The notes below the pieces were generated by a model, which saw nothing but the letters and a program-made list of their open reading frames with translations, did no database searches and was not told the origin of the DNA. Shown here piece after piece: positions 1 through 47,382 of a stretch of DNA of 58,502 bases. How positions within the stretch are numbered: position 1 is the first letter of the stretch; every line of letters starts with the position of its first letter. The stretch spans positions 1-58,502 of the forward strand of contig JAFGDJ010000137.1 of NCBI GenBank assembly GCA_016932135.1, read 5' to 3'. Source of the DNA: Spirochaetales bacterium (GTDB taxonomy: Bacteria; Spirochaetota; Spirochaetia; JAFGDJ01). The position numbers and the translations under genes are program-made.

Positions 1-980
1 CCGTCGGCAAAGAATTTCGCCACACCCACGGTATTCAAGGGGGATGTGTACTTATCACGAGATTCTTCCAGCAGGGCGAATTCTTCTTCCAGGTCCGCCT
101 CGGGGTCCAGGGATACGGCGGATCGAACCCGCAGTTTCAGTTTTCCCTCCGACTCCAGAGCGGCCAAAGCCTCCAGGTTCTCCCGGCCCGACATATTCTG
201 AATACCGGTGTAACCCCAGCCGTGCATCCTTTCCTGAAAGAGTTCCATGGCCTCGATCTGCTGTTCCAGACTCAGTTCCTGTACCGGCATAAGACCGGCG
301 GCGGCTTCCTTCATGGCTCCCCAGGGTTCTCCGGTCGCGGGGTCCCGCTCAATCCTACCGCCCGCGGGGTCGGGGGTGTCTTTGGTTATGCCGAGATAGT
401 CCAGGCCGGCGCTGTTGATCCAGCCGATGTGTCCGTCGTAGGAAACCAGGAAGATCGGTTTGTCCGGGCTGATAGCATCCAGGCGTTCCTTCTTGGGCCC
501 TAAGGACACTTCCATACCGGTAAAAGCCCCGGTGGAAAAGCCGGAACCGAAATACATGTCCAGATCCGGGTGTTCTTCCACAAAACTTTGAATCGTTTCC
601 AGCATGGCATCCAGATCGCTCATAACATCGAAAAGACTGATGCTGAACAAATCGGCATCCGCGGTCCCCGGAGGGTGCAGATGGGTTTCAATCATCCCCG
701 GCAACACCATCATGCCCTTCAGGTCCCAAACCTCCGTCCCCGGCCCCACGTAGGCTTCCGCGTCGGCGTTACTGCCCACAAAGACAATGATGCCGTCTGT
801 TACGGCCAGCGCTTCGGCTTTGGTTCCGTTCGCGTCCATGGTGTACACATGCCCGTTCTTCAGTACCATATCCGCCGCTTTTTCCTCAGGCGTGGAAACA
901 CAGCCGGCAAGCGCCAACGCCGCCAGGATAAACCAGGGGACAGAGCACCACAGAAAGAAAGAACTTCGTTTTTTCTTCAT
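1..980 (-). CDS. amidohydrolase-family (Amidohydro_3 / YtcJ-like) lipoprotein, N-terminal part; ORF continues past the left edge
   Basis: Absent from ORF track (no stop in window). Minus-strand ATG at 980-978 with GGAGG 8 nt upstream. My translation is MKKKRSSFFLWCSVPWFILAALALAGC (lipobox) ...MVLKNGHVYTMD...VLPGMIETHLHPP (HxH metal motif) and stays open to position 1. The + strand ORFs listed here are Pro/Arg-rich antisense artefacts. Confidence 0.75.
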   Translation of the reverse strand, partial: MKKKRSSFFLWCSVPWFILAALALAGCVSTPEEKAADMVLKNGHVYTMDANGTKAEALAVTDGIIVFVGSNADAEAYVGPGTEVWDLKGMMVLPGMIETHLHPPGTADADLFSISLFDVMSDLDAMLETIQSFVEEHPDLDMYFGSGFSTGAFTGMEVSLGPKKERLDAISPDKPIFLVSYDGHIGWINSAGLDYLGITKDTPDPAGGRIERDPATGEPWGAMKEAAAGLMPVQELSLEQQIEAMELFQERMHGWGYTGIQNMSGRENLEALAALESEGKLKLRVRSAVSLDPEADLEEEFALLEESRDKYTSPLNTVGVAKFFAD

Positions 981-8288: not shown

Positions 8289-8521
8289 AGTTATTTCCCG
8301 ATTACTACTAAAAGATGGAATGCCGGCCCCATAAACAGGACCGGTCTTACTATAGCCGGTCAAAGGACTTTATACAAGCCGGTTGCCCGGTCCTGGGTCT
8401 TTTTCAATGAACTCTTTCCACTCCCCGGCTCCCCTAGCACCTTTAACTCATGGAGAAAAGCATATATTGTATCTAGGTTATACGACATTACTTTGCAGAC
8501 TGAATTATATGAGGATATAGT

Positions 8522-15060: not shown

Positions 15061-16353
15061 ATGGAGGCTGAACGGAAAATTATTCATGTAGACACTGTCG
15101 GGCCGCGAACATCGAAGAAAAAACAAAGACGCATCCTTATCCTGGCCGCCGGGTTTGTGTTGGCCGTGGCGGCGGTCTTTTTTATCTTTTTACATTCCGG
15201 CAAGGCTGATAGTGTATCGATCAAAGATTACACTGTCACAACGGTGCGCCGGGGCACCCTGGTTACAACCACCGAAGCCGGAGGCACCGTCGTACTGCCC
15301 CGCACCCTGACCATCACCAGCGGACAGGAAGGGTATACCGAGGAATTGCTGGTATCCGAGGGGGACAGAGTAACCCAGGATAGCGTGTTGGCGGTGCTTC
15401 ATGTGCCGGACCTGGAGGATCAACGGGACAGCCTGGCCATTAAGCTCGAACAGGCCGAACTGGAGCTCGAAAATCTCATCATCGATTATGCCTATGGAAA
15501 GAAAAACCTGGAACGCAGTCTGTCGAGGCTGGAAGATGATATTACCGAAGCTGAAGAAGATGCGGCATCGCTGCGGGAACTGGCCGAGCTGAAGAGTTCC
15601 CGGCAGACCGACTATGAGAACGCTCTGGAGAAAGTCGAAACCTTAAGGGAACAACATGAAGACACGGTGACATCCCTGGAGGAAATGAAGGCTAAGGAAG
15701 CTCTCGCTCTGGAAAAACAAAGGGTCAGTATCCGGCAATTAGAGGTTGACCTGGACAACATTATCGAAGATATCGAAGAAGCGCGGATCAAGAGTCCTAT
15801 TCCCGGTGAGATCCTCAGCATAAACGAAAACCTGGAGATTCCGGGCAGCCTGATTCAAGTAACGGAAGCCTTGTTTGTTGTTTCCGACCGCTCGGAGGTA
15901 TATATCGATTTCGATGTCTATGAACAATACGCCTCGCTCCTCACGATAGGGGGAACCATGACTGTTACCGTCGGCACCAACACCATGGATGCGGAAATCG
16001 TAAAAATCGGAAAAATCGCCACCCTGGACAGTGACGGCCTTTCCGCCACCGTGGAAGTACGGGCCCGACCTTTAACGAACATCGAACTGACCCCCGGCGC
16101 TTCGGCCGTATCAAGCATCGTTATCGGTAAAAATGAAAATACCCTGCTTCTTCCCCGGGGGCCTTACCTGACCACGGGAAACCGGGAATATGTATACAAA
16201 ATAGACGGAACCAAGGCCTATAAAACCCCCGTCACTTACGGATCCATCGAGGGATCTGAAGTGGAGATTCTGGACGGCCTTTCCGCCGGAGATGAGGTCA
16301 TTACCAGCGGTTATCAGAATTTCTTAGATTACGACATGATCGATCTGAAATAG
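15061..16353 (+). CDS. efflux transporter periplasmic adaptor (HlyD/MacA-type membrane fusion protein)
   Basis: N-terminal TM anchor, lipoyl-like hairpin motifs (VSEGDRVTQDSVLAVL; IKSPIPGEILSI), long coiled-coil, beta-barrel C-terminus. ATG 15061 has GGAGG 5 nt upstream; the track start 15049 has none. Confidence 0.85.
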   Translation: MEAERKIIHVDTVGPRTSKKKQRRILILAAGFVLAVAAVFFIFLHSGKADSVSIKDYTVTTVRRGTLVTTTEAGGTVVLPRTLTITSGQEGYTEELLVSEGDRVTQDSVLAVLHVPDLEDQRDSLAIKLEQAELELENLIIDYAYGKKNLERSLSRLEDDITEAEEDAASLRELAELKSSRQTDYENALEKVETLREQHEDTVTSLEEMKAKEALALEKQRVSIRQLEVDLDNIIEDIEEARIKSPIPGEILSINENLEIPGSLIQVTEALFVVSDRSEVYIDFDVYEQYASLLTIGGTMTVTVGTNTMDAEIVKIGKIATLDSDGLSATVEVRARPLTNIELTPGASAVSSIVIGKNENTLLLPRGPYLTTGNREYVYKIDGTKAYKTPVTYGSIEGSEVEILDGLSAGDEVITSGYQNFLDYDMIDLK

Positions 16354-16363
16354 GAGGCATCAC

Positions 16364-17086
16364 ATGATCACCCTTTCCACTATTGGAAAACAGTACGACC
16401 TGGGAACTGTAAAAATCGACGCTCTTAAAAATCTTTCCCTTACCATCGATAGGGGAGAATACATCGCCGTCATGGGACCTTCCGGTTCCGGAAAGTCGAC
16501 CCTTCTCCACATCCTCGGTATTCTCGACACCGCTTCTTCGGGCCGGTACCTCCTGGAGGATTACGACATTACCAACCTTCCCGACCGGGAGCAGGCTCGG
16601 ATACGGAACAAGCACTTCGGTTTTATCTTCCAGAGCTTCAATCTGTTTCCCGAACTCAGCGCTCTGGAAAACGTCATGCTGCCCATGTCCTACGCAGGAA
16701 TAGCCTATTCAAAAAGAAAGGACCGGGCTGCGGCCTTACTGGAAGATGTGGGTTTACAGCACCGGATGCACCACCTGCCCACCATGATGAGCGGCGGAGA
16801 ACAGCAGCGGGTAGCCATTGCCAGAGCCCTCTCCAACGACCCGGATCTCATCCTGGCCGATGAGCCTACGGGCAACCTCCCCTCGGATAAGGGTGAAGAA
16901 ATTCTGACCCTGCTCGAAAGCCTGAACCAACGGGGTGTAACTATCGTCATGGTGACCCATAATGACGCCCAGGCGGAGCGAGCCCGCCGGACAATCCACC
17001 TGAAAGACGGCAGCCTGCTGGAACAGGACAGCCTCCAGGGGGGACAGAGCAACCTACAGGCGTCCGGGGAGGCGATCCATGTTTAA
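16364..17086 (+). CDS. ABC transporter ATP-binding protein (MacB/LolD-type)
   Basis: Walker A GPSGSGKST, signature MSGGEQQRVAIARAL, Walker B LILADEPTGNL. Confidence 0.92.
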   Translation: MITLSTIGKQYDLGTVKIDALKNLSLTIDRGEYIAVMGPSGSGKSTLLHILGILDTASSGRYLLEDYDITNLPDREQARIRNKHFGFIFQSFNLFPELSALENVMLPMSYAGIAYSKRKDRAAALLEDVGLQHRMHHLPTMMSGGEQQRVAIARALSNDPDLILADEPTGNLPSDKGEEILTLLESLNQRGVTIVMVTHNDAQAERARRTIHLKDGSLLEQDSLQGGQSNLQASGEAIHV

Positions 17087-25327: not shown

Positions 25328-26027
25328 GCTGGAAGACGTTGTTACCTGTTACGGGAATATCAAAGCCCTGAAAGGGATTTCAATTACCATACAGCCCGGA
25401 GAGATTATCACGGTGATCGGAGCCAATGGTGCCGGGAAATCCACCACCTTGATGACCATCTGTGGTATTATTCCGCCTCGGCAAGGGAAAATAATCTATG
25501 AAGGCCAGGACATCACCAATGCGGAACCCGATAAAATTGTCGGCATGGGGATATCTCAGGTTCCCGAAGGCCGCCGAATCTTCCCCTTCCTCACCGTGCA
25601 GGAAAACCTGGATATGGGGGCCTATCTTCGCCGGGACACAGACGGAATCAAAAGGGACAGAGACTACATTTACGAACTCTTTCCCATTCTGGCTGAACGG
25701 AGAAACCAGGCCGGCGGTACCTTAAGCGGCGGTGAACAGCAGATGCTGGCCATTTCCCGGGCGTTAATGGCTAAACCGAAGCTTTTACTGATGGACGAGC
25801 CTTCCTTGGGACTGGCTCCCATCATTGTGCAGCAGATCTTCAGCATTATTACCAAGATCAATCAGGAAAACGGTACCACGATTCTTTTGGTTGAGCAAAA
25901 CGCCAACATGGCTCTGAAGGTAGCCCACCGGGGTTATGTCATGGAAACCGGCCGCATAACCATGGAAGACACGGCGAAAGGGCTCGTTTCAAATCCTGAA
26001 GTAAAGGACGCTTATCTAGGGGTGTGA
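25320..26027 (+). CDS. livF: branched-chain amino acid ABC transporter ATP-binding protein LivF
   Basis: Start at MLKLEDV (ATG 25320, overlapping the livG stop). GANGAGKSTT, LSGGEQQMLAISRAL, LLMDEPSLGL. Confidence 0.92.
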   Translation: MLKLEDVVTCYGNIKALKGISITIQPGEIITVIGANGAGKSTTLMTICGIIPPRQGKIIYEGQDITNAEPDKIVGMGISQVPEGRRIFPFLTVQENLDMGAYLRRDTDGIKRDRDYIYELFPILAERRNQAGGTLSGGEQQMLAISRALMAKPKLLLMDEPSLGLAPIIVQQIFSIITKINQENGTTILLVEQNANMALKVAHRGYVMETGRITMEDTAKGLVSNPEVKDAYLGV

Positions 26028-26359
26028 AAACCCTTGCTTTCTCGACGCTCATTTTTCTTTTTGTCCTCTTTTTTTCCGGTTGTAGTGGGGACAGAGTAAC
26101 CCTGGAATACTATTATTCTTCCCACTGCCCTTCCTGTGATAAGGTATTGCCGGTTCTTCGCGTTTTGTCACGGCAGTGGTGCTACCGGGTAAAAACAATA
26201 AATGTACTGACTGATCGGGAATTGGATCATTTTCTTTCGCGTTTAAACCAGGCTGCTTTAAGTGATCACCCCGGCAGGCTGCCGATGCTTTTTATGGATG
26301 ATGAAGTGTATACGGGGACAGAGGAGATCCTATCGGTGCTACAAACCTTGGAGAATTGA
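26024..26359 (+). CDS. small thioredoxin-fold-like CxxC lipoprotein
   Basis: GTG start overlaps the livF TGA (GTGA). Signal peptide plus lipobox (FFSGC) and a HCPSCDKV redox-type CxxC motif. Visibly AT-richer than liv. Confidence 0.55.
   Translation: MKTLAFSTLIFLFVLFFSGCSGDRVTLEYYYSSHCPSCDKVLPVLRVLSRQWCYRVKTINVLTDRELDHFLSRLNQAALSDHPGRLPMLFMDDEVYTGTEEILSVLQTLEN
26086..26099 (+). repeat. degenerate copy of the TGGGGACAGAGGAA word (TGGGGACAGAGtAA)
   Basis: 13/14 match, inside the CxxC lipoprotein ORF (codons GGG GAC AGA GTA). Confidence 0.5.
26314..26325 (+). repeat. 12-nt copy GGGGACAGAGGA(g)
   Basis: Inside the CxxC lipoprotein ORF, read as GGG ACA GAG GAG (G-T-E-E). Confidence 0.55.
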
Positions 26360-26367
26360 CAATCTTG

Positions 26368-26381
26368 TGGGGACAGAGGAA
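26368..26381 (+). repeat. exact copy of 14-mer TGGGGACAGAGGAA (intergenic)
   Basis: 9 nt after the CxxC lipoprotein stop and 64 nt before the namA ATG. Confidence 0.9.
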
Positions 26382-26388
26382 ACCTTTC

Positions 26389-26417
26389 TTGCCCTTCTAT
26401 AGTCGTTTTACTATATT
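26389..26417 (+). promoter_or_regulatory. candidate promoter for namA
   Basis: TTGCCC (26389-26394) - 17 nt - TATATT (26412-26417). Pattern match only. Confidence 0.25.
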
Positions 26418-26444
26418 TAATAATGATAAAGAAAGGAGCAATGA

Positions 26445-27473
26445 ATGAGTAATTTATTTTCTCCGTTAACAATGAAAGATCTAACTCTGCGCAACCGAAT
26501 AGTCATGTCTCCTATGTGCATGTACAGTGCAGATAAGGATGGATTTTCTTCTGACTGGCACAGTCTTCATTATGCGACTCGGGCTATGGGCGGCGTCGGC
26601 CTCATTCTTCAAGAAGCCACCGCCGTTGAAGGACGAGGGCGTATTACCGATGGTGATTTAGGTATCTGGGACGACCGGCATGTGGCAGGGTTTAAGAAGA
26701 TTGTTCAGCAGGTACATCGCTTCGGTGCAAAGATTGGCATTCAACTGGCCCATGCCGGTCGTAAATGCATGATTCCCTCGGAGGATATCATCTCACCTTC
26801 CCCGGTTTGTTACGATGCCAATGACCCACGGTACAGGATACCACGGGAGATGAACGATCAGGATATAGAAACTGTGATACGGGCCTTCCAGGACTCTGCT
26901 TCCAGGGCTGTTGAGACCGGGTACGATCTCGTGCAGATTCACGCAGCCCATGGGTACCTTTTAAATGAATTCCTCACTCCCCTGGTGAATAAACGGACCG
27001 ATAAGTATGGGGGTAGAACCGGGGGGACAGAGCTGCTGCGAGAGGTCATACACGCGGTCAGAAAGGTATGGCCGGAGCATAAGCCACTGGAAGTGAGAGT
27101 TTCTGCCCGGGACTATGAAGCCGATGGAAATGAGCCTGAAGATCTGGCAAAGGTCTTAAACGCCGTCAAGGCTGAGGGCGTGGACAGCGTGAATGTCAGC
27201 TCCGGCAATGTGGTACCGGTACCTTCAGATGCCTACAATTCATACCAGATACCCTTCGCTGAGATCATTCGGATAGAGACTGGTCTTATCGTGACAGGTG
27301 GAGGAATGGTTACCGATGCGACCCAGGCCGACGGCATTATCCGCTCCGGCAGAGCCGATATGGTCTTTTTAGGGAGAGAACTTCTCAGGTCCCCCTACTG
27401 GCCACTGGCCGCCTCAAAATCACTGGGAGCAGAGCTGGATTACTGGCCGGAGCAGTACAAACGGGCGAAGTAA
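26445..27473 (+). CDS. namA: NADPH dehydrogenase, Old Yellow Enzyme family (YqjM/NamA type)
   Basis: LRNRIVMSPMCMYSA...DWH..HYATRA.GGVGLI..EATAV...GIQLAHAGRK...IHAAHGYLLNEFL...GRELLRSPYW; length and motifs match YqjM-class OYEs. Confidence 0.88.
   Translation: MSNLFSPLTMKDLTLRNRIVMSPMCMYSADKDGFSSDWHSLHYATRAMGGVGLILQEATAVEGRGRITDGDLGIWDDRHVAGFKKIVQQVHRFGAKIGIQLAHAGRKCMIPSEDIISPSPVCYDANDPRYRIPREMNDQDIETVIRAFQDSASRAVETGYDLVQIHAAHGYLLNEFLTPLVNKRTDKYGGRTGGTELLREVIHAVRKVWPEHKPLEVRVSARDYEADGNEPEDLAKVLNAVKAEGVDSVNVSSGNVVPVPSDAYNSYQIPFAEIIRIETGLIVTGGGMVTDATQADGIIRSGRADMVFLGRELLRSPYWPLAASKSLGAELDYWPEQYKRAK
27023..27032 (+). repeat. 10-nt core copy GGGGACAGAG
   Basis: Inside namA, read as GGG ACA GAG (G-T-E). 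This short copy could be chance on its own. Confidence 0.35.
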
Positions 27474-27567
27474 TAAATATAATAAATGTTACTTTCAATA
27501 GATCTTATTACAACGCACGATTTATTAAGCCCCTTAGGAATAGTAATATAGCGAATAACATTCTTCC

Positions 27568-28143
27568 CTAATCAATCATGATATATTTCCACACCAACCT
27601 TAAGAACCAATTGGGTGGCCTCTCCAGAATATCCAGGATACCTTTTTGAAGAAAAGCAATGCCATTATAGTTATATTCTGTTGGATTATCGACAATACAC
27701 GCTTTTACTGGGTTCATTGTGACATAAATAAAAGTATATAGATATTGTTTGAAGTTATGAATAATAACACTCTGGAATCGCTCTGCAAAGACATGACCGA
27801 AATATCCAAAAGTTTTATTGAACTTCCGAGCAAAAACACTTTTTATCCACTGCTTAATTTTTGAAATATCTTCATCTCCTAAAGGTTTTATAATGAAATG
27901 ATAATGACTTCCCATGATGCAGAAGTTGTGCAGCTCAAAATTGAATTTCTTTTTCGCCCTACGGATTACAATTAAAAACATTTCCTTCACTCCCGGTAAA
28001 TCAAAGATCTTTTCTCCTCGAACGGCTCTGGAGAATACATGGTAACTTGCACCATATTGTTTTTGACGTGCCCGCCTCATTAACGCCCCCCTTAATTTTG
28101 TCTCTATACTAAGAAAACGTGTCAAATACTTGCTTTGCTTCAT
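27568..28143 (-). CDS. IS200-like HUH / Y1 tyrosine transposase homologue (RAYT-like)
   Basis: 191 aa with YHVFSRAV N-terminal strand, HUH motif (GSHYHFII) and catalytic-Tyr helix (YLYTFIYVTMNPVKA). AT-rich relative to its neighbours. No tnpB and no second IS end recognisable. Confidence 0.75.
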   Translation of the reverse strand: MKQSKYLTRFLSIETKLRGALMRRARQKQYGASYHVFSRAVRGEKIFDLPGVKEMFLIVIRRAKKKFNFELHNFCIMGSHYHFIIKPLGDEDISKIKQWIKSVFARKFNKTFGYFGHVFAERFQSVIIHNFKQYLYTFIYVTMNPVKACIVDNPTEYNYNGIAFLQKGILDILERPPNWFLRLVWKYIMID

Positions 28144-28166
28144 AAAAAAACTTTCTAATAGAAAAA

Positions 28167-28180
28167 TGGGGACAGAGGAA
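28167..28180 (+). repeat. exact copy of 14-mer TGGGGACAGAGGAA (left arm of inverted doublet)
   Basis: Intergenic. Read as ATG GGG ACA GAG GAA GTT TAA (28166-28186). Confidence 0.9.
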
Positions 28181-28221
28181 GTTTAAAATAACTGTATTTT
28201 AATCTAATAGAATACTAATTT

Positions 28222-28235
28222 TTCCTCTGTCCCCA
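28222..28235 (-). repeat. exact copy of 14-mer TGGGGACAGAGGAA, inverted (right arm of doublet)
   Basis: ttcctctgtcccca on the + strand, with a 41-nt AT-rich spacer from the left arm. Confidence 0.9.
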
Positions 28236-28268
28236 ATAAACATGTTCCAAGAAACACACTTTTTTCTC

Positions 28269-28295
28269 TTGTACCACTTCCTTCAGTACTATAAT
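28269..28295 (+). promoter_or_regulatory. candidate promoter for the PEGA-protein operon
   Basis: Perfect TATAAT at 28290-28295. TTGTAC lies 15 nt upstream, which is short spacing. Confidence 0.3.
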
Positions 28296-28343
28296 ATAGT
28301 GACACCAACCTATTGAAAATCTTATATGGTATGGGAGAACTAC

Positions 28344-29885
28344 ATGAAAAAAATGCTCTTCCTTTTTGCGCTCCTTGTTTTTATTCTCACTTCTTTTTCC
28401 CTTTTTTCTGACGACCTTCCCCTATTAGCTGTACCGAACATCGCGGCCTCCAACGTTCCGGAGGCCTTGGCCGGTACCTGTAGAAACATGGTGGAAACAG
28501 CCCTCTTAAAAACCGGCAGGTATACCGTACTGTCTTACACCGATATCGAAGAGATCCTATCTGCCCAGGCGTTTTCCTTATCCGGGTGTACCGACGAGTC
28601 CTGCGCCATCGAGATTGGGAAACTTCTGGCGGCGGATAACATCGTGGTAGGTGAACTTTCCCTGGTAGCAGAAAATCACGTCCTGGCCATCCGCCTGGTG
28701 AACGTCACTTCCGGCAGAACTTTAAGCGCAGAAGTGGTCAATATTGAAGACCTTTCAACCCTGCAGGAAGCAGCGTTCACAGCCGCCTACGCTCTGACGG
28801 GACTAAAATACCTAGCCGGCAGTGCCGTTACCGAAACCGGTGGGCTTTACATTCTTGCCCCGGCGGGCCGTACCCTGGAAGTCTTTCTAGACGGCTCTTC
28901 AAAAGGGTTTACCCCCCTGCTGGTTGAAGATATCCCTTTCGGGGTTCATCTTCTGGAAGCCCGGGCTGAGGGTTATATCTACATCTCTGAAATAAGTGTG
29001 GCGTCTAAAGATATTGTGGAGATTACCGCCGACACGGCCCTGTTGAAAGGAAACCTGTTTCTCGCCGTAACACCTCCGGATGCTTCGGGTTTCCAGGTTT
29101 TCATCGACGGTACCCAGGCCTCCGTCGGTTTACTGAGAGACTTACCGGCGGGACAACGGTCGATCACTATTACCGGCGGAGGATGGTACTACCAGGATAC
29201 GATTACCGTGGAAAGCGGCAAAACCGCCCGGCTCAGCGCATCTCTCTTAGAAGCCGGTACAGCGGTCTTTATCGCTCCCGAAGGAGCTGTCTTGAACCTC
29301 GCCGGTGACCTGGAGATTCCGGAAGCCAAGGTCAACATGGGGATTGATTTGCCCACCGGTGAATGGGCTTATAACATCACCCATCCTGATTACATCCCGG
29401 TTGAAGGAAGATTGACGGTAAAACGCGGGGGGACAGAGGAAGTCAGGCCGGAATATATGCACAACGAAGCCTGGGAACTATCTCGGATGATCGAAGAGGC
29501 GGAAGCCGACTTGCTTAAGGCGCAGAAAAACCGGAAAAGTTTAAATAACCTAGCTCGATTCCTCGGCTTCACGGGGGTGTCAGGCTTAGCCGCCTCCGGA
29601 ACCGCCGAAGGATTGATCCAGTACCACCTGTACAATATCGAAAAAAAGACCCCCCTGTACGAGGCTGCCACCGACACCTCTCTTGCCCAGGAACTGGGTC
29701 GGAGCATCGACAAGAGCATCGCCGCAATCGATCCTTTTCTGCGGAACTTACGAAACTACAGCCTCGTTATCGGCGGATCGAGCCTGGTCGCATCCGGGAT
29801 CTTTTTCCTCCTCCAGCCCGATATAACTAAACTGGAGGAACAACTGGTATCCCTCCAGGCTCGACTCGAGGAGGCGCGGAAATGA
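28344..29885 (+). CDS. PEGA-domain envelope protein with LpoB/CsgG-like N-terminal domain and C-terminal TM anchor
   Basis: Signal peptide. N-domain motif SGCTDESCAIEIGKLLAADNIVVGEL..RLVNVTSGR. PEGA-like modules (LEVFLDGSSKGFTPLLVEDIPFGVHLLEARAEGY). C-terminal TM helix plus a short coiled coil. ATG 28344 follows GGGAGA. Confidence 0.7.
   Translation: MKKMLFLFALLVFILTSFSLFSDDLPLLAVPNIAASNVPEALAGTCRNMVETALLKTGRYTVLSYTDIEEILSAQAFSLSGCTDESCAIEIGKLLAADNIVVGELSLVAENHVLAIRLVNVTSGRTLSAEVVNIEDLSTLQEAAFTAAYALTGLKYLAGSAVTETGGLYILAPAGRTLEVFLDGSSKGFTPLLVEDIPFGVHLLEARAEGYIYISEISVASKDIVEITADTALLKGNLFLAVTPPDASGFQVFIDGTQASVGLLRDLPAGQRSITITGGGWYYQDTITVESGKTARLSASLLEAGTAVFIAPEGAVLNLAGDLEIPEAKVNMGIDLPTGEWAYNITHPDYIPVEGRLTVKRGGTEEVRPEYMHNEAWELSRMIEEAEADLLKAQKNRKSLNNLARFLGFTGVSGLAASGTAEGLIQYHLYNIEKKTPLYEAATDTSLAQELGRSIDKSIAAIDPFLRNLRNYSLVIGGSSLVASGIFFLLQPDITKLEEQLVSLQARLEEARK
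29429..29441 (+). repeat. exact copy of 13-mer GGGGACAGAGGAA inside the PEGA-protein gene
   Basis: Read as GGG ACA GAG GAA (..RGGTEEV..). Confidence 0.9.
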
Positions 29886-31291
29886 AACTGAAATTCATCG
29901 TTCTTTTTGTCATGGTTGTCCTTGTTTTTTCCGCCTGCGATCTCTTCAGTCCGGATCGGTTCTACACCGCCGTGGATACCTACAACCAGACTGAGCAGCC
30001 CCTGGATTCCAACTACTGGCGCAGGCTCTACTATACGGGCGCTGACCTGAATGCCGGGGATATAAACGATCAGAATATTGTTATTGTTGAAAATACGGCT
30101 TATGTCCTGGGATCGTACTACCAAGAGAGAGACAATGTCAGCCGGGTAAAAACCTTCGGACAAATCACTCTTGATACCTTGGAAGCCAGAAGCCTGGAAC
30201 TTCCAATGGGGACAGAGGAAAACCTCTACTGGTGGGAGGACACCTTCACCCAGGCCGACGGGGATCTTTTCCTGGTCTTTTTTGATTCAGAAGCCGCCAC
30301 TGCGTCCCTCCACCTGTACCGATACAGCCCGGTAGACGGCCTATGGGAAGACGTTACCTTGGAGCTGGGAGCAACAACTCCATCGTATATCGAAATGATA
30401 CATTGTAACGATCGTTTCTTCTTTCTCGGATGCTTTGGTGATGAAGACAGAACCCATAAAATCTTTGAATACCTAGCCGGTGAATTTACTGAGATTTTTT
30501 CATACACCCTCGGTATTTTCGCCTATGAATGCCTTATAACCACCAACGGCACTGAGATGATCTTCTTCGACCTTTATGATCTTTCTTTCGTATGGCGCCT
30601 CAGCACTATGGGGGAAGAAATTGTTACAGACCACCCAGATACTGCCGAGTTCACCGACTACAAAACCCAGGCGTTCCTTACCGACTCAAACCGTCTCTGC
30701 CTTCTTCGCTGGGATAAGAACAGCGACCTCGAAATTCCCTTTACCTTTGATCCCCTTATCCTGGACTACGTAGATCTGGATGGTGACCTCACCTGGAAGC
30801 GGGAAAGCTATGATGCCTACCCGCGGCTGGGCGGGGACTCTCTGGAAGCGGAAATGTATCAAAACGATATATACTTTCTGCCTGCTACCGATTGGGACGG
30901 TTCGGATGATCTGGACAATGAGCCGGCGGAACTCTTTCGAATCAACAACGATGATCTTGCCTTGGAGAATCTGGGCTCCCTTCCTTTGAGCACGGAAGGT
31001 ACATTCTGGTATAACTTTGAAATCACGGCGACTTTCAATGATATGCTGTCCTTCAATCTCAACGTGGGTACTATTCAGCGGCCGAAAGCTTATTTTTATA
31101 ACCCCGGAGCCCCGGACGGAAATAAATGGATACCCCTGCCTGATTGCAGGGATATCATGGGAATCACCTGGAGCCCGTGGCCCTACAATGATCTGGGGTG
31201 GTATAACGGGAAATATTATACCGGCGGGGTGGACGGCAGCCCTCAGACTATTTCCCGCTGCCTTCTCGAATACACCCCCCCGGTATTCTAA
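29882..31291 (+). CDS. hypothetical lipoprotein, Trp/Tyr/Asp-rich (possible beta-propeller-like)
   Basis: ATGA start/stop overlap with the PEGA gene and lipobox VFSAC. No family recognised; repeated aromatic-Gly strand patterns. Confidence 0.6.
   Translation: MKLKFIVLFVMVVLVFSACDLFSPDRFYTAVDTYNQTEQPLDSNYWRRLYYTGADLNAGDINDQNIVIVENTAYVLGSYYQERDNVSRVKTFGQITLDTLEARSLELPMGTEENLYWWEDTFTQADGDLFLVFFDSEAATASLHLYRYSPVDGLWEDVTLELGATTPSYIEMIHCNDRFFFLGCFGDEDRTHKIFEYLAGEFTEIFSYTLGIFAYECLITTNGTEMIFFDLYDLSFVWRLSTMGEEIVTDHPDTAEFTDYKTQAFLTDSNRLCLLRWDKNSDLEIPFTFDPLILDYVDLDGDLTWKRESYDAYPRLGGDSLEAEMYQNDIYFLPATDWDGSDDLDNEPAELFRINNDDLALENLGSLPLSTEGTFWYNFEITATFNDMLSFNLNVGTIQRPKAYFYNPGAPDGNKWIPLPDCRDIMGITWSPWPYNDLGWYNGKYYTGGVDGSPQTISRCLLEYTPPVF
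30207..30220 (+). repeat. exact copy of 14-mer TGGGGACAGAGGAA inside the lipoprotein gene
   Basis: Read as ATG GGG ACA GAG GAA (..LPMGTEEN..). Confidence 0.9.
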
Positions 31292-31300
31292 AGAATCCAT

Positions 31301-31326
31301 CCTCGGCCGACTCTAGTCGGTCGAGG
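31301..31326. terminator. stem-loop between convergent lipoprotein and acyltransferase genes
   Basis: cctcggccgac / tcta / gtcggtcgagg is an 11-bp stem with one G-U pair. The loop contains the minus-strand stop codon. Confidence 0.45.
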
Positions 31327-32137
31327 TAACCGCCTCCAGGTGTTCCTCGATACCGAAGCCGGAAAGGAGCCGTTTGTTCAGCTCCGTCATGAAGCGCACC
31401 GCCGGGGCACCGTCCACCACATCGTGGTTCATCGCCAGGGTCAGAGAGAGAACTTCCCGTATTTTGATCTCATCGTTCACCACCAGGGGTTTTTTCCCGA
31501 AACCTCCCACCAGGAGACTTAAGACATGGGGGGTAATGGGAATGGCGTAACCGCTCCCCCCGGCGAACATAGACAGGGCGGATAATCCCACGGTTCCGAA
31601 AAACTTCCGCCGGAGCACGGGGTTCCGGCGCATGATATAGGCCAGGACCAGCCGCCGCATGAAGCGGGGCATTTTTTCCACGACAACCCGGGCGGTGCTT
31701 CTCTGGGTGTCTCCGGCTATGGCCGATTCGGCGGTGGATTTCTGGGCATCCTCGAGTTCCCGGTAGATTTCGTCCAGGCTTTTTTTATCGGCTGCCCTGA
31801 GGATATAGGTGGTGGCGTGGCGTTCCCCCTGGATTTCCCGCTCCACGATGGTATTGACGTCGACATCGTTGAAAATGATGAGTTTCTTCCGCCCTTTCAG
31901 GTACCCTTGCAGCATGGGGTAATCGATCAAGGTATGACTGAAGACGAAGAGAAGATACGCCGTCAGGGAAAGACCTCTGTCCCTCTCCCGACGGTAATGG
32001 CGAATCGCCCGACGAATATCGGTCACATCCACGTCGAAAAGTCCGCGGATAGTGTGGTTCCGTGCCGCTTCGATCTGGTAATCCGCTATCCGCTGCCGCA
32101 CAGGGGGGAAAGGCAGCATTTTATAATCCCTCTGCAT
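31313..32137 (-). CDS. 2-oxoacid dehydrogenase E2-type acyltransferase catalytic domain protein (stand-alone, no lipoyl domain)
   Basis: 274 aa with C-terminal catalytic motif LTLAMNHDVVDGAPAVRF (DHRxxDG / CAT-like His-Asp-Gly). Confidence 0.7.
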   Translation of the reverse strand: MQRDYKMLPFPPVRQRIADYQIEAARNHTIRGLFDVDVTDIRRAIRHYRRERDRGLSLTAYLLFVFSHTLIDYPMLQGYLKGRKKLIIFNDVDVNTIVEREIQGERHATTYILRAADKKSLDEIYRELEDAQKSTAESAIAGDTQRSTARVVVEKMPRFMRRLVLAYIMRRNPVLRRKFFGTVGLSALSMFAGGSGYAIPITPHVLSLLVGGFGKKPLVVNDEIKIREVLSLTLAMNHDVVDGAPAVRFMTELNKRLLSGFGIEEHLEAVTSTD

Positions 32138-32189
32138 GATGGTATTTTACCTAAAAGTCTCTTTTTGGGGAAGAAGGCGGAAAGAGTTA

Positions 32190-32218
32190 TTGACCCAGGG
32201 CGGTGTATCATGGATTAT
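32190..32218 (+). promoter_or_regulatory. candidate sigma70-type promoter
   Basis: TTGACC (32190-32195) - 17 nt - GATTAT (32213-32218) with TG just upstream; 47 nt before the GTG 32266 start. Confidence 0.35.
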
Positions 32219-32265
32219 TGTTTTTACAAAGGCTTTCTTAAGAAATGCTACAAAAGGAGGATTAG

Positions 32266-33531
32266 GTGGACCTTCGTGAAAGGCAGCTCTATGGTATTAT
32301 GATCCTGTTGCTGGCGGGGCTGATCGTTACCGGTTTCCTTTTTCAGGGTTTCGGCCCGACCCTCCGGGGATTCCTGGATATCCAGAGACATCCCGCCAGG
32401 CTGATAAACGATTATACCTCCATCGGCGGAACCGGTGCCACATTAGTAAACGCGGCGGTCACCGCGCTGATCGGTTTACTTCTTGTGGCGATTACCGGGG
32501 TGCGTCTCTCCGGGCCGACCATCGCCGGAGTTCTTACTATCTTAGGGTTCGGATTCTTCGGCAAGACTCCTTTGAACATTCTTCCCATCATCACCGGCGT
32601 ATTCCTGGCCTCTAAAATCGCGAAAAAAACCTTCAGCGAATACCTCTTGATAGCCCTTTTCGGTACGGCTTTGGGTCCCCTGGTTACTTTTCTGGTGTTG
32701 GAGTTCGGTTTGACGGGACTCCCCGCTCTGGTAACGGCAATTCTCGCAGGAATTGTGACGGGGATACTCCTGCCCCCCCTGGCCATGGCCATGTTGCACC
32801 TTCACCAGGGGTACAACCTTTACAACATGGGGCTGACCTGCGGCTTTTTCGGTCTCTTCGCCGCTTCAATCATCACCGCTATCCGAGGTCCGATAGCCAT
32901 CACCGTCATCTGGAACGCTGAACCGCCCCTGCTTTTGCTTCTTCTTATGCCGGTTCTCTCGGTGTACTTTATTCTCGCCGGGATAGTGATGGGAAAGAAG
33001 GACATCTGGCGTTCTTTTATCTCCATTCAACGGCTTCCCGGCCGGCTGCCTTCCGATTTTATCGATATGGCTTCCCCCGCCGGTACCTTTCTCAACATCG
33101 GTCTCCTGGGCCTGGTTTCCTGGCTGTACGTTTTTCTCGTGAAAGGAGCTTTCAACGGCCCGGTGCTGGGGGGCATTCTTACCGTCATGGGCTTCGGAGC
33201 CTTCGGGAAACACCTGAAAAACGTCTGGCCTGTGATGGCCGGGGTCTTTATAAGCTGCCTGGTCTTCGGGAAGGACCCTTCCGCACCCGGTCCGCTGCTG
33301 GCGGCTCTGTTTGCCACCACCCTGGCCCCCCTGGCGGGGGAATTCGGTCCCCTGACGGGAATCATCGCCGGTTTTCTCCACCTGGTGATGGTGGAACGAA
33401 CCGCCGCGTGGCACGGCGGTCTTGATCTGTATAACAACGGCTTCGCCGGAGGTCTTACCGCCGCTTTTCTGGTGGCGGTCATCGATTGGCTCCGGACAAT
33501 CAAACAACGAAAAGAGGCGTTAAAGGGATGA
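32266..33531 (+). CDS. internally duplicated multi-pass membrane protein (DUF1576-like by recollection)
   Basis: GTG start with AAAGGAGGA SD. The two halves share GP(T/V)(I/L)(A/G)G(V/I)LT(I/V)(L/M)GFG(F/A)FGK..N(I/V).P(I/V)..GVF(L/I). Confidence 0.7.
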   Translation: MDLRERQLYGIMILLLAGLIVTGFLFQGFGPTLRGFLDIQRHPARLINDYTSIGGTGATLVNAAVTALIGLLLVAITGVRLSGPTIAGVLTILGFGFFGKTPLNILPIITGVFLASKIAKKTFSEYLLIALFGTALGPLVTFLVLEFGLTGLPALVTAILAGIVTGILLPPLAMAMLHLHQGYNLYNMGLTCGFFGLFAASIITAIRGPIAITVIWNAEPPLLLLLLMPVLSVYFILAGIVMGKKDIWRSFISIQRLPGRLPSDFIDMASPAGTFLNIGLLGLVSWLYVFLVKGAFNGPVLGGILTVMGFGAFGKHLKNVWPVMAGVFISCLVFGKDPSAPGPLLAALFATTLAPLAGEFGPLTGIIAGFLHLVMVERTAAWHGGLDLYNNGFAGGLTAAFLVAVIDWLRTIKQRKEALKG

Positions 33532-33902
33532 TACGAACAGATTTATTGTTGCAGCTGATCACCGAGATCTCCAGTTTTATCCTGGAAGGCCGGCCCAACC
33601 GCATGGTTATATCCCTCCATCAGGAGCCCGGGGGGCTGCACCTGGCAATACTGGATGACAAAAAAAGGACCGATGAAGAGATCACCGAGATATCCCGGGC
33701 TCTCAATAAAACGAAGCGGCCCGAACTCTCCGGGTATTACGGCACTATGACGGGCCATGATTTTCTGGGGAATGCCAGGCTGGATATGCTGGGCTGGCAG
33801 GTGAAACACGCCGATGTAAACCGTACCGCCGAAGGCATCAAGATCGACCTCTGGCTGGGCAACGATAAGTTCGATCCGACGAATTTCAACTTGCCGTCAT
33901 AA
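33528..33902 (+). CDS. hypothetical small cytoplasmic protein, translationally coupled to the upstream membrane protein
   Basis: ATGA overlap at 33528-33531; 124 aa with no recognised domain. Confidence 0.5.
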   Translation: MIRTDLLLQLITEISSFILEGRPNRMVISLHQEPGGLHLAILDDKKRTDEEITEISRALNKTKRPELSGYYGTMTGHDFLGNARLDMLGWQVKHADVNRTAEGIKIDLWLGNDKFDPTNFNLPS

Positions 33903-33904
33903 AA

Positions 33905-33925
33905 CCCCCGGAAGACCTCCGGGGG
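33905..33925. terminator. bidirectional stem-loop terminator
   Basis: cccccgga / agacc / tccggggg is an 8-bp GC-rich stem, flanked by aaaa on the 5' side, between convergent genes. Confidence 0.55.
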
Positions 33926-33952
33926 CAGTTATGGAAAGAAAGATAAAACTAA

Positions 33953-35335
33953 TCAAGCGGATTCTCCCGACTCTGTACTTTTTATAGGATCCGGTTCTCT
34001 ATTCAGTTTGTACCAATCAATATTCCTCGTCAGGACCATCACCAGGGCCAGTAGAGCGAACAGACCGACCGAACCGATGAGCAGAGCATAGTCTTCCGAC
34101 TGAAGCACGGTATAAAGAAAAAGATACAGACTCACCATAACGGGAATCATGGCGAGGCCGGTTTTCCTTCCGGGCATGATCGCCAGGGTATAGAAAACTA
34201 TCAATACCGTTGTTCCCCCGGCCCCCAGAAGGTACGCCGAGGTGAAACCCAGGTGTTCCGAAACGGACAGAAGAAGCAGGTAGAACAGGGTATTGGCCCC
34301 GCCGATCATCAGATACTGAAGGATATGGATCCGCTGCCGAGAAAAGACCTCCATGAGGAAGAAAGCCAGGAAGGGCAGCAAAATAAACAGCACCCCGTAC
34401 TTTACCGAACGTTCCACCCGGGCATAGAGATCCACCGGCTGATATAGGCTGACGCCGAAAGCCGATCCGCTGATATTCCATACCTCCAGATCACCCTCTT
34501 TCCAGACCGCGGGGATGTTTCTCGCCAGGGCATGGATGGACCAGGAAGCGGTAAAGCCTTCTTCATCCTTCAGGTCCCGTTCCTCCGGAAGAAACGCCCC
34601 TTCAAAGGACGGCGCCGGCCAGTCCGAATCAAGAAATACCTTTGTTTCATGCCCGAAGGGGATAAATTCCAGGCTTCCGGCTCCCCGGGTATTCAAGGTT
34701 ACATAGAATTTGTTTGCTTCGTTGTTTTCCCAGCCGGCCTCGAGATTGTATTCCACGTTATAGGGAAAGAGACCCAGGGAACCGCCGTTGGATTGAAAAT
34801 CACCACTTTTTCCGTTCCAGGTTATACCGGTTCCTGCCTCTAAGGCCCTCATTTCCGGCAGTTCAATGAATAGTTTCGCGTCTTTCCAGTAGATATCTCC
34901 GTCTTCCAGGTGGAGCTTTTCAATGTCCGGTTTGAGGAAATTCCCCGACAGGATCATCTCAGCGGCATAGACAGGAACTTCATAGATCCCGCGCTTGCGG
35001 ACCTCTGTCCTTAAGGCAACCCGGATATCCAGATGCTCCGCCGTGATGAAGAAGTTCTTAATTTCCGTTTCCGTTACCTCCCCCCTGTCGGTTTCAACGC
35101 TATAGGTCCTCCGATAGGGAACGGCGATCAAGGGTCCGGCCATGGTCTGGGGACCTCCCCAGAGAGCCATGATCTCCTGTTTCGCCTCTTCGCTTCTGTA
35201 TTGCCGGTCTGCAACGATTACCCGGATCATGGACAGAGGTATGAGAAAAAACAGCACCAGTAGAACGATCAGCACCACCTTGCCCACTGAACCGTAGGAC
35301 AGGCTCCTCAATTTTGTTCCTTTGATCTCTTTCAT
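33953..35335 (-). CDS. creD: cell envelope integrity inner-membrane protein CreD
   Basis: N-terminal TM, then QYRSEEAKQEIMALWGGPQTMAGPLIAVPY, a large periplasmic part and five C-terminal TMs. ATG 35335 has AAAGGAG upstream. Confidence 0.8.
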   Translation of the reverse strand: MKEIKGTKLRSLSYGSVGKVVLIVLLVLFFLIPLSMIRVIVADRQYRSEEAKQEIMALWGGPQTMAGPLIAVPYRRTYSVETDRGEVTETEIKNFFITAEHLDIRVALRTEVRKRGIYEVPVYAAEMILSGNFLKPDIEKLHLEDGDIYWKDAKLFIELPEMRALEAGTGITWNGKSGDFQSNGGSLGLFPYNVEYNLEAGWENNEANKFYVTLNTRGAGSLEFIPFGHETKVFLDSDWPAPSFEGAFLPEERDLKDEEGFTASWSIHALARNIPAVWKEGDLEVWNISGSAFGVSLYQPVDLYARVERSVKYGVLFILLPFLAFFLMEVFSRQRIHILQYLMIGGANTLFYLLLLSVSEHLGFTSAYLLGAGGTTVLIVFYTLAIMPGRKTGLAMIPVMVSLYLFLYTVLQSEDYALLIGSVGLFALLALVMVLTRNIDWYKLNREPDPIKSTESGESA

Positions 35336-35495
35336 AAAAACTCCTTTTCTTCTTATATGTTCCTCCCTAAGGTAGTATGACATTTTGAAAAAAGAATGGC
35401 CCAATTGTGGCAATGTGGTGGCTTTTCTCAGGGATGAACGGGGTTAAAGGCGGCAATCCTTGGTAAGGCGTTTATTCTGTGGTATTCTCCTGATC

Positions 35496-36239
35496 ATGGA
35501 AGCGAATACCCGGCGCCTTGTCTATTGTGTTGACGATGAAGAGAACCTCCGAGTTACCCTGTCTTATGCACTGGAAAAGGAAGGATACCGCTGCTCGGTT
35601 TTCTCCGACGGGGATGAAGCCTGGGCAGCCATGGAGATGTCCCTCCCAGACCTGGCGGTGATCGACATAACCATGCCGAGAATGGATGGGCTGGAACTCT
35701 GTCGGAGGATCCGCCGGGTATCCGAAACCCTGCCGGTAATCTTTCTTACCAGCCGGGACGAGGAGATCGACCGTATTCTTGGGCTTGAACTGGGAGCCGA
35801 TGATTACCTGACCAAGCCGTTCTCCATGAGAGAACTCCTGGCCCGGATAAAGGTCATCTTTCGGCGTATCGAGGCTTACCGGAAGGATACCGCCGGCCCG
35901 GTGAATCATGAGGATAACGGCTTTTTACAAGCCGGCCCGCTGTACATGGATACCCACCGGTATACGGTTCGTTGGAATACCACGCCGATACCTATGACGG
36001 TGACGGAATTCCGCATTCTGGCGGCTCTTATCAAGAATCCCGGGGTGGTGAAAACCCGGGAACAACTCCTTCACGAAGCCTACCCGGAAGACCTCTACGT
36101 CAGTGACCGGTCCGCCGACAGTCATATCAAAAGGATACGAAAGAAAATCCAGGCGGTCGACCCGCTCTTTTCATCCATTGAAACCCTCTACGGCCTGGGT
36201 TACACCTACAGGGATCCGGAAGACCCGGTAACGGCATGA
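35496..36239 (+). CDS. OmpR-family response regulator (CreB-like by context)
   Basis: Receiver (VYCVDDEENL..DLAVIDITMPRMDG..LTSR..KPF) plus winged helix (EFRILAALIKNPGVV..LYGLGYTY). Divergent from creD. Confidence 0.88.
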   Translation: MEANTRRLVYCVDDEENLRVTLSYALEKEGYRCSVFSDGDEAWAAMEMSLPDLAVIDITMPRMDGLELCRRIRRVSETLPVIFLTSRDEEIDRILGLELGADDYLTKPFSMRELLARIKVIFRRIEAYRKDTAGPVNHEDNGFLQAGPLYMDTHRYTVRWNTTPIPMTVTEFRILAALIKNPGVVKTREQLLHEAYPEDLYVSDRSADSHIKRIRKKIQAVDPLFSSIETLYGLGYTYRDPEDPVTA

Positions 36240-41696: not shown

Positions 41697-41821
41697 GAAA
41701 TCGCTCTGTTACATTCTATACTTCCGAGCGTACGATCCTTCCGGTCGACAGGCCAATGGATATGCGCCGTCAGGGTATCACCGGAAACAGTGATGCCTCC
41801 CGTGATTGGAAAGGAAGCTCT

Positions 41822-46839: not shown

Positions 46840-47382
46840 CTAGGAGTACCTCTGTCCCCCAGCCATGATCCGTTCGGTCAGAAAACCCATCAATGCCGCT
46901 GCGATGACGGTTAAGGCGAGCCGGGTAAAGGTAAAGGCAGGTCCCATAAAGGTGAACTCCATCATTTCCTGGGGAAGTTTTATACAGGCCCAGGCGGTTA
47001 GAAAGACGATGATATTCGCCCGGCGGGCGCCCTTGGCGAGAAGAGCCGCCGCCACGGGAAAGGCGACATACAAAGGCCCGGCGGGAAGCATCCCCAACCC
47101 CAACGAAAGAAGAAATCCTTTAAACCCTGAGGACTCTCCCAGGTGTTTTGTGATGAGTTCTTTCGGCACAAAGACCGAAAAGAGCCCTATCATTACCGTA
47201 ATTGCCGGAAGAATGATAAGCATCTCCAAGAAAAACTTCCAGGAAGCCTCTAAAAAGGCTTGCCGGCGATCCGGCAGTACCAGGGCCAGAATAACCGCTG
47301 CAGCCGCCGTTACCAGGAGGGCCGCCACCCGGCCTTTCGAGAAGGTCTTCTTTTGTATATCCTTCTTTTCCATATCTCTCAC
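46840..47382 (-). CDS. small multi-pass permease subunit (split two-subunit permease)
   Basis: 180 aa, about 5 TMs, 4-nt overlap with the upstream partner. By recollection it resembles the split permease pairs found next to PadR regulators. Confidence 0.6.
   Translation of the reverse strand: MRDMEKKDIQKKTFSKGRVAALLVTAAAAVILALVLPDRRQAFLEASWKFFLEMLIILPAITVMIGLFSVFVPKELITKHLGESSGFKGFLLSLGLGMLPAGPLYVAFPVAAALLAKGARRANIIVFLTAWACIKLPQEMMEFTFMGPAFTFTRLALTVIAAALMGFLTERIMAGGQRYS

Follow-up and report, generated by a model that had tools for sequence, protein, structure and literature searches.

We describe a short DNA word that accompanies one family of chromosomal Y1/HUH proteins. It was found in a stretch of 58,502 nucleotides (nt) from Spirochaetales bacterium GCA_016932135.1 (contig JAFGDJ010000137.1; hereafter, the window), where copies cluster around a gene for a tyrosine "transposase"-like, RAYT-like protein (the Y1 gene). 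We consider it likely that the word, GGGGACAGAG(GAA), is the local form of RGGGACRGAGSW, the cognate DNA site of a RAYT-like Y1/HUH family that includes the product of the gene at 27568-28080. Comparative data strongly support the link between word and gene.

In the window, the 13-mer GGGGACAGAGGAA is present in five exact copies, while dinucleotide shuffles of the window led to an expectation of 0.01 copies, and none of 100 shuffles reached five. A sequence-only reading of this DNA had listed these five copies, together with three that share the core only (26087, 26314, and 27023), and had judged them to be beyond chance; positions, strands, and judgement were all confirmed (Table 1). Its total of eight copies was too low. 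The 10-mer core GGGGACAGAG, the most over-represented 10-mer of the window, occurs 12 times (0.19 expected in dinucleotide shuffles), and the four extra copies lie elsewhere in the window, outside the AT-richer accessory stretch to which all copies had been assigned. The 9-mer-level motif GGGAC[AG]GAG has 16 copies in the window, of which eight fall in 26080-30220 (binomial P = 5e-6). As was claimed, five of the clustered copies are inside four open reading frames (ORFs), where they encode the peptides GDR or GTE; across the whole window, all three reading frames are in use. Repeat searches of the window revealed no conservation past about 13-16 nt. The paired flanks of some copies (GGAAGT and GGAAACCT), which the same reading had pointed out, carry no general information (ca. 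0 bits past motif position +9 in 351 unique copies).

The Y1 protein contains the motifs SHYH (HuH), GHVFAERFQS, and YVTMNP (Tyr), with both the HuH and the Tyr intact. Pfam assigned it a Y1_Tnp domain (6e-11) and found no second domain. The NCBIfam model REP_Tyr_transpos (NF047646) was matched over its full length at 69.8 bits, below the cut-off of 80; three relatives behaved in the same way (64.8-75.3 bits, all at full model length), and the IS200 model NF033573 (25.3 bits versus a cut-off of 55) was not reached. The E. coli TnpA-REP structure 4er8 is the only sequence match of the protein in the PDB, and also the best fold match (template modelling (TM) score 0.71-0.73) to its AlphaFold2 model (predicted local distance difference test score 92), with IS200, IS608, and ISDra2 TnpA scoring about 0.53. 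Of IS200/IS605 features, neither a tnpB neighbour nor end hairpins were found at the gene, and, unlike the near-identical multi-copy IS200/IS605 elements, Y1 relatives are more than 20% divergent and reside in syntenic host contexts. About 230 clusters (50% identity) match the protein at E <= 1e-30. The relatives are rare, with 90% clusters each found on one to three contigs; a search of plasmids and phages returned nothing above 33% identity. Thirty-five relatives share H59, Y119, N123, and P124 without exception and have the consensus motifs NHYH, GHVW[YG][DE]RF, and Y[IV]AxNP. The 170-amino-acid (aa) form of the protein is on record, and the 191-aa product of the full ORF is not. The gene appears to be a domesticated, chromosomal member of the RAYT-like family.

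A profile of the 35 relatives (A2) retrieved 80 metagenomic loci, with 25-68% GC and Y1 proteins 43-69% identical to the query. The 8-mers most common upstream of the Y1 genes were GGGACGGA (39 of 79 regions) and GGGACAGA (21 of 79). In 56 of 75 loci (75%; chance expectation, 0.002 per locus), the 300 nt upstream of the start codon contained an exact GGGAC[AG]GAG on the sense strand, and 66 of 75 did so when one mismatch was allowed; the median distance to the start codon was 98 nt, and 16 loci contained at least two upstream sense copies. An inverted copy within 500 nt downstream of the gene was found in 11 of 54 loci. Pooled over loci, the density was 2.06 copies per kb on the sense strand between -500 and 0, about 0.5 per kb per strand between 0 and +500, and 0.1-0.5 per kb per strand out to ±10 kb, compared with 0.0076 expected. 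The co-localisation with Y1/RAYT genes that the sequence-only reading had proposed to test is seen in about 80 independent loci.

Overall, 242 copies were counted in 556 kb of Y1 loci (0.44 per kb, with some loci at 1.2-1.5), roughly 20 times the background of 0.023 per kb measured in 867 kb of unrelated genome loci; the latter came from an exact 14-mer search of genome contigs, and the matches listed there were almost all single chance ones. A further contig, L211, contained no word in 11.4 kb. The logo of 351 unique sites is 12 nt long, R-G-G-G-A-C-R-G-A-G-S-W (RGGGACRGAGSW), with ca. 0 bits in the flanks; no conserved hairpin was apparent in this family logo, and GTAG is not present. Of the 242 copies, 41% are intergenic, though intergenic DNA makes up 13.6% of the sequence, so that the word is about three- to four-fold denser between genes. 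The remaining 59% are in ORFs, 84 in sense and 59 in antisense orientation, the sense copies being in all three frames. Neighbouring copies in direct orientation are within 100 nt of each other in 55 of 164 pairs, spacings of 20-55 nt being common, while such close inverted pairs are rare (12 of 263). Tandem arrays or inverted pairs with palindromic spacers were also seen in intergenic DNA, at L208 (4622-4675, with a 23-nt unit GGCACCCCGGGGACAGAGGAACG), L180 (5008-5141), L175 (5422-5466), and L012 (317-370); the L012 contig, which is binned as Clostridia, has one inverted pair. A literature search for the word itself returned primers and microRNAs, and nothing else.

The base at the central R of the word is essentially the same throughout a locus (for example, 24 G and 1 A, 20 A and 0 G, or 19 A and 0 G). 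The variant tracks the tree of Y1 proteins, in which one deep clade is of the A type and the other of the G type; the window protein and those of two close relatives, L002 and L003, form an A-type subclade nested within the G-type clade. Within the motif GHV[WF]-x-x-RF-x-S, the two types are best told apart by residues 99, 100, and 103 (numbered as in the window protein). At these positions, Y-D..K/H is found in G-type and G-E/C/D..F in A-type proteins, while the window subclade has A-E..Q and represents an independent G-to-A switch, in which Y99 was changed to A. The three residues align with Q95, P96, and W99 of 4er8, and Q95 is among the residues of E. coli TnpA-REP reported to contact GTAG (PMC6006769). 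The co-variation of the word with residues in the predicted DNA-reading region of the protein is suggestive only.

Conservation of coding copies could be followed in close relatives of the window. L002 (from GCA_964410865.1) and L003 (from the window's own sequencing run, Logan SRR13394437) encode Y1 proteins 74-79% identical to that of the window. The word is the top 10-mer of L003, with 14 copies in 20.5 kb; in L002, overlapping sub-words of it tie for the top count (five), and the full 10-mer occurs four times. In both, copies are concentrated around the Y1 gene. GCA_964410865.1 is otherwise word-poor, and the tight cluster in L002 suggests that closeness to the gene has an effect, or that conservation is stronger there. 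Three other relatives, L206, L207, and L208, have 1.0-1.6 copies per kb. In L002, L003, and L207, the Y1 gene is located between a TrkA-type channel gene and the gene for exonuclease I (ExoI, sbcB). The ExoI genes are 71-75% identical at the nt level, and three words in them are identical at orthologous positions, while L002 and L003 use identical codons for just 44% of the identical amino acids. At a fourth site, in antisense orientation, L003 has the complete word, L207 a near-word, and L002 unrelated sequence, with no indels. An alignment to solved ExoI structures revealed no insertion at the word sites that it covered. Coding copies originate by base change, not by insertion. A functional tie between ExoI, a single-stranded DNA (ssDNA) exonuclease, and an HUH protein may exist.

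The origin of the cluster in the window became apparent from comparison with L209 (contig 43 of GCA_964410865.1), which shares synteny with the window (Liv operon, followed by OYE and DUF1576) and lacks a 4.8-kb island that contains the Y1 gene; the insertion site is at 9603-9968 in L209, and neither border of the island (27474 and 32265) has a word. The island has a lower GC content and four copies of the word (28168, 28222, 29429, and 30208), which hence have no orthologous sequence in L209. Its 469-aa ORF, the only island gene searched, has almost no homologues; one of them, P0037 (41% identity), reads SLSDLN at the position of the word, without GTEE, and another, P0038 (43% identity), is gapped there and is therefore uninformative on the origin of the word. 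Of the eight clustered copies, the remaining four (26087-27023) are in DNA syntenic with this island-less relative, so that the confinement to accessory DNA that had been claimed does not hold. The OYE copy at 27023 is present in L209 as an identical word at the same codons, the sole copy in 19.6 kb, though the two genes are 71% identical at the nt level. The 26087 site is a one-mismatch near-word in L209, GGGGACAGAA, and the 26314 site is a partial match with no indel. The 26369 word is absent from L209, the window having there a 24-nt segment (26360-26383) flanked by a TCTTG direct repeat. Judged from these alignments, the cluster is composite, made up of an inserted gene-bearing island and adjacent ancestral DNA in which near-words read as perfect words in the genome that has the gene nearby. 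Identical words in orthologues from genomes with no RAYT-like gene, which the sequence-only reading had regarded as damaging to its proposal, were found only in a limited sense: the OYE copy in L209 is identical and has no adjacent Y1 gene, but the same genome has a Y1 gene elsewhere (L002), and we conclude that the copy is ancestral, not RAYT-independent.

On these results, the following scheme is probable. Family members would each have one or two sense-strand "home" copies of the word, located about 50-170 nt ahead of the gene, and the same variant would be dispersed over the chromosome at 0.1-1.6 copies per kb, mostly inside ORFs. In the window, the home copies would be the inverted pair directly upstream of the Y1 gene, which can fold as an ssDNA hairpin (28167..28235; -18.3 kcal/mol, z = -6.4) and whose minus-strand copy (28222-28235) is the sense-strand copy typical of the family. 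The Y1 protein would bind the word in a sequence-specific manner, probably as ssDNA, and might cut it as well; the fold of the protein, its intact catalytic residues, an invariant site close to the gene, and the co-variation all point to such recognition and, possibly, cleavage. Its reading region would be the equivalent of the GTAG-reading region of E. coli TnpA-REP. Coding copies arise by substitution at compatible peptides (GTE, GDR, and GGQ), and at least one of the intergenic copies arose by a short indel (24 nt). Since coding copies outlast local synonymous divergence, selection or a homogenising process would be at work: copies would be kept by selection for a host-level function in ssDNA processing or marking, or be renewed by protein-dependent conversion. 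The 4.2-kb cluster would then correspond to the surroundings of the Y1 gene, with one half in the island that brought the gene and the other in adjacent ancestral DNA.

Several observations weigh against this scheme. The association of word and gene is correlative, and genome-wide statements are extrapolated from the ±10 kb flanks, the distal parts of the window, and three contigs without a called Y1 gene (L209, L210, and L211). The hairpins that known RAYTs recognise have no conserved counterpart at this word. A Y1 gene may be intact in a genome with few words, as in GCA_964410865.1, where the 19.6 kb of L209 contain a single copy. The co-variation amounts to about two independent switches, with exceptions at L203-205, L126, and L138. 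Finally, the pooled profile revealed no general distance gradient past ±500 nt from the Y1 gene, and the wider cluster seen in the window and L002 is therefore not a rule of the family.

A bolder version of the scheme, to which we give a rather small chance, is that the RAYT-like HUH family maintains, and perhaps writes by short-patch conversion with no change in length, a 12-nt chromosome-wide signature word, genes included, as a mark for ssDNA processing. The word would then be an HUH-read counterpart of Chi or of uptake sequences; an action that is strongest near the gene for the protein would account for the clusters in genomes poor in words, those of the window and L002.

Of the other explanations, one concerns the local clustering rather than the word, and is a real if lesser possibility: the cluster may result mainly from horizontal transfer of the island from a word-rich relative into a word-poor genome. 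The absence of the island from the orthologous locus, its lower GC content, and the near-lack of homologues of the 469-aa ORF all fit such a transfer. So does the density of the word, since L003, L206, and L207 have 0.8-1.6 copies per kb throughout, similar to the four copies in 4.8 kb of the island, and L003 is from the window's own sample. But four of the eight clustered copies are in syntenic DNA, three of them being absent or imperfect in the island-less orthologue, and L002 has a similarly tight, Y1-centred cluster in a conserved syntenic context.

That the word is a genome-wide signal for other machinery (DNA uptake, an operator, or a signal similar to Chi or to FtsK-orienting polar sequences), with the copies at Y1 promoters reflecting regulation of the gene by that system, is improbable. 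The behaviour of the sequence is indeed that of a word, with its length of ca. 12 nt, lack of flanks, use of both strands and all frames, gain by substitution, and density of up to 1-1.6 per kb, and it has a weak bias to the locally G-rich strand and some inverted pairs between genes. Yet it follows a single protein family across the whole GC range of 25-68%, has a sense-strand peak, in 75-88% of loci, ca. 100 nt ahead of the Y1 gene, varies with predicted DNA-reading residues, and is at background in unrelated genomes and in L211. No other conserved neighbour gene was found in the few loci with gene content listed, the 80 metagenomic loci being unannotated. The strand bias just mentioned (61% of 371 copies from all Y1 loci are on the locally G-rich strand; mean GC skew +0.019, Wilcoxon P = 4e-7) may reflect the replication strand or plain composition, and the window has the opposite bias. 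Orientation by replication strand was itself rejected, with GC skew and word strand disagreeing between the window and L003 and a Spearman rho of 0.28 (P = 0.27) across loci. A role at the RNA level, including that of a ribosome-binding site, was rejected too: copies use both strands relative to genes and every frame, their distance from start codons varies, and an Rfam scan gave no match in the reported stretch.

There is still less reason to regard the copies as classical mobile insertions, of the REP/REPIN (REP, repetitive extragenic palindromic) or miniature inverted-repeat transposable element type, spread by transposition. The indel with its direct repeat at 26369, the intergenic tandem or dimer arrangements in L208, L180, and L175, and the strong hairpin upstream of the Y1 gene are what such insertions could leave. 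Against this, conservation ends at 12 nt with no hairpin, the copies in ORFs cause no change in length relative to orthologues and have near-word intermediates, and closely spaced inverted pairs are scarce. The motif is also kept across proteins that are 43% identical, while REP families differ between RAYTs (PMC6006769). A perfect 15-nt inverted repeat in the window (26368-26382/28221-28235; a 10-nt one is at 27023/28225) was considered as the borders of a mobile unit consisting of OYE and Y1, and was rejected: the real insertion is 27474-32265, and the arms enclose the ancestral OYE gene, which is syntenic in the island-less locus. Chance, or a codon or peptide bias from repeated GTE and GDR peptides, retains practically no probability: although the coding copies in the window encode GTE, GDR/RDR, or GGQ alone, and 12 of 13 are in the sense of the gene, the counts relative to shuffles refute it, three window copies are intergenic, antisense copies and all sense frames are well represented in the family, and identical codons are kept where synonymous sites have otherwise diverged.

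The features of the window are collected in Table 1. L001 is identical to window positions 25719-37473. The window and L003, each about 71% identical at the nt level to GCA_964410865.1 and obtained in the same sequencing run, contain two paralogue-like Y1 genes; either a single genome that encodes two Y1 paralogues (74% protein identity) or two co-resident species could account for them. An origin of the OYE word by overwriting of a conserved GGSxENRxRF was rejected: the closest orthologues (down to 62% identity) all read GGR-xGGTE/K, and the copy in L209 shows the word to be ancestral. Beyond two close relatives, the nearest source-named homologues of OYE/NamA (ca. 60% identity) are from Bacillota (Clostridia, Tissierellia), which suggests horizontal acquisition by this spirochaete lineage. 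Downstream of OYE, in the same position as the island, L210 has PIN/PhdYeFM and HipA toxin-antitoxin genes, and with different accessory DNA at one site in the window and in L210, the site looks like a hot spot for such DNA. In L209, a short tandem duplication (CTACGGGGAG, then CTACGGGGACAGAA) is found at about 8250-8290, directly 5' of the near-word that corresponds to 26087. A 14-mer, GGGGACAGAGTAAC, is common to 15361-15374 and 26087-26100 and encodes GDRVT in both of the unrelated ORFs. The only Rfam match in the window is a Moco (molybdenum/tungsten cofactor) riboswitch at 41710-41830 on the plus strand (61.3 bits versus a gathering score of 36).

Table 1. Copies of the word and associated genes; positions are in the window unless a locus is named
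Feature	Position	Strand	Remarks
Y1/HUH tyrosine "transposase"-like (RAYT-like) gene	27568..28080	-	170 aa from M22; ORF reaches 28143
Inverted pair of 14-mer TGGGGACAGAGGAA	28167-28180, 28222-28235	+, -	41-nt AT-rich spacer; directly upstream of Y1 gene; exact 13-mers at 28168 (+) and 28222 (-)
Exact 13-mer, intergenic	26369..26381	+	directly 3' of stop codon of Trx-like ORF
Exact 13-mer in PEGA/CsgG-like ORF	29429..29441	+	within island; peptide GTEEV
Exact 13-mer in 469-aa ORF	30208..30220	+	within island; peptide GTEEN
GGGGACAGAGTAA in Trx-like lipoprotein ORF	26087..26099	+	peptide GDRVT
GGGGACAGAGGAG in Trx-like ORF	26314..26326	+	peptide GTEEI
GGGGACAGAGCTG in OYE/NamA	27023..27035	+	peptide GGTEL
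Core 10-mer outside reported stretch	936..948	+	antisense in minus-strand lipoprotein-like ORF running off left end of window
Core 10-mer outside reported stretch	15361..15373	+	434-aa ORF; peptide GDRVT
Core 10-mer outside reported stretch	17040..17052	+	240-aa ORF; third frame, GGQS
Core 10-mer outside reported stretch	46847..46859	-	10-mer at 46850; 3' end of minus-strand ORF or intergenic gap
9-mer-level copy GGGGACGGAGG	729..741	-	G variant
9-mer-level copy	5172-5184	+	
9-mer-level copy	25653-25665	+	
9-mer-level copy	31972-31984	-	
Thioredoxin (Trx)-like lipoprotein	26024-26359		
OYE/NamA flavin oxidoreductase	26445-27473		
PEGA/CsgG-like protein	28326-29885		
Orphan 469-aa protein	29882-31291		
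4.8-kb insertion relative to GCA_964410865.1 locus	27474..32265		carries Y1, PEGA/CsgG-like, 469-aa, and 2-oxoacid_dh-like genes
ExoI gene, L002	10733-12199		
ExoI gene, L003	11026-12468		
ExoI gene, L207	5676-7151		

Among known systems, the DNA uptake sequence of Neisseria, the uptake signal sequence of Pasteurellaceae, cyanobacterial HIP1, and Chi are words of about 8-12 nt, with densities of about 0.3-1.5 per kb, that are found inside and outside coding sequence and in all frames, are gained by base substitution, and are occasionally arranged in inverted pairs. The word described here resembles them in length, density, use of frames, and gain by substitution, and differs from all of them in being tied to, and co-varying with, one adjacent gene family; unlike HIP1, it is also non-palindromic. 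Nothing observed here points to competence or RecBCD. The direct short repeats 20-55 nt apart, just upstream of an HUH gene, recall the iterons located by HUH Rep genes; unlike rolling-circle iterons, the copies are dispersed over the chromosome and have no nick-site hairpin or replicon context.

The likeness to REP/REPIN-RAYT systems (REPtrons) is greater. As in these, a gene flanked by a short repeat encodes a Y1/HUH protein, apparently single-copy and chromosomal, with 4er8 as the best fold; further copies of the repeat are scattered along the chromosome, its variant goes with the lineage of the protein, and the context, syntenic in three genomes (TrkA-Y1-ExoI), appears to be vertically inherited. 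The differences are that the word is a non-palindromic 12-mer with no hairpin and no GT[AG]G, that most of its copies are in ORFs, by substitution, and that the protein scores below the NCBIfam RAYT cut-off. Unlike lineage-specific REP families, the word hardly changes among proteins that are as little as 43% identical, or over GC contents of 25-68%. In-frame intragenic REPs are on record (PMC6006769 citing PMC3733652), and repeats in coding sequence are thus not as unexplained as the sequence-only reading had it. Its statement that no feature class explains the word was likewise too strong, given that the word fits the motif GGGGWSAS, which was published for the flanking repeats of RAYT-like genes that have no REPs (TIRYT/TIRtrons; Di Nocera et al. 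2013, PMC3733652). TIRYT corresponds to TnpA-Y1 subclass 2.1, or Bertels group 1 (PMC6006769).

The match to GGGGWSAS is seen with GGGGACAG, while the G variant, GGGGACGG, departs from it at position 7. Moderate repeat families, sometimes in dimers or clusters, are a further feature shared with TIRYT. In contrast to the terminal inverted repeats of TIRYT, the usual arrangement here is one or two direct sense copies upstream of the gene, with an inverted downstream copy in about 20% of loci. Subclass 2.1 proteins have a median length of 238 aa, a C-terminal helix-turn-helix (HTH)-like domain, and the motifs NH[YF]H, FQ or W[EQ], and Y[IV]HLNP, whereas the window protein is 170 aa long, is without the C-terminal HTH-like domain, and has SHYH, RFQS, and YVTMNP. 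Neither PMC3733652 nor PMC6006769 reports dispersal of a bare 12-mer in ORFs or its conservation at orthologous codons. For the largest RAYT-like groups, the partner sequence and function are not known (PMC6006769; bioRxiv 10.1101/119735). Published surveys of RAYT flanks used 16-mers (bioRxiv 10.1101/119735) or structure searches (PMC6006769), and a bare 12-mer would be missed by searches for 16-mers, palindromes, or structures. We conclude that, of the known kinds, REP/RAYT and TIRYT systems come closest, the repeat here being a short non-palindromic word. A RAYT-like family tied to a conserved, non-palindromic, dense, and mostly coding word offers a concrete and cheap test of protein recognition, and widens the REP/RAYT idea, one of mobile extragenic hairpins, to take in words within genes that are borne by base substitution.

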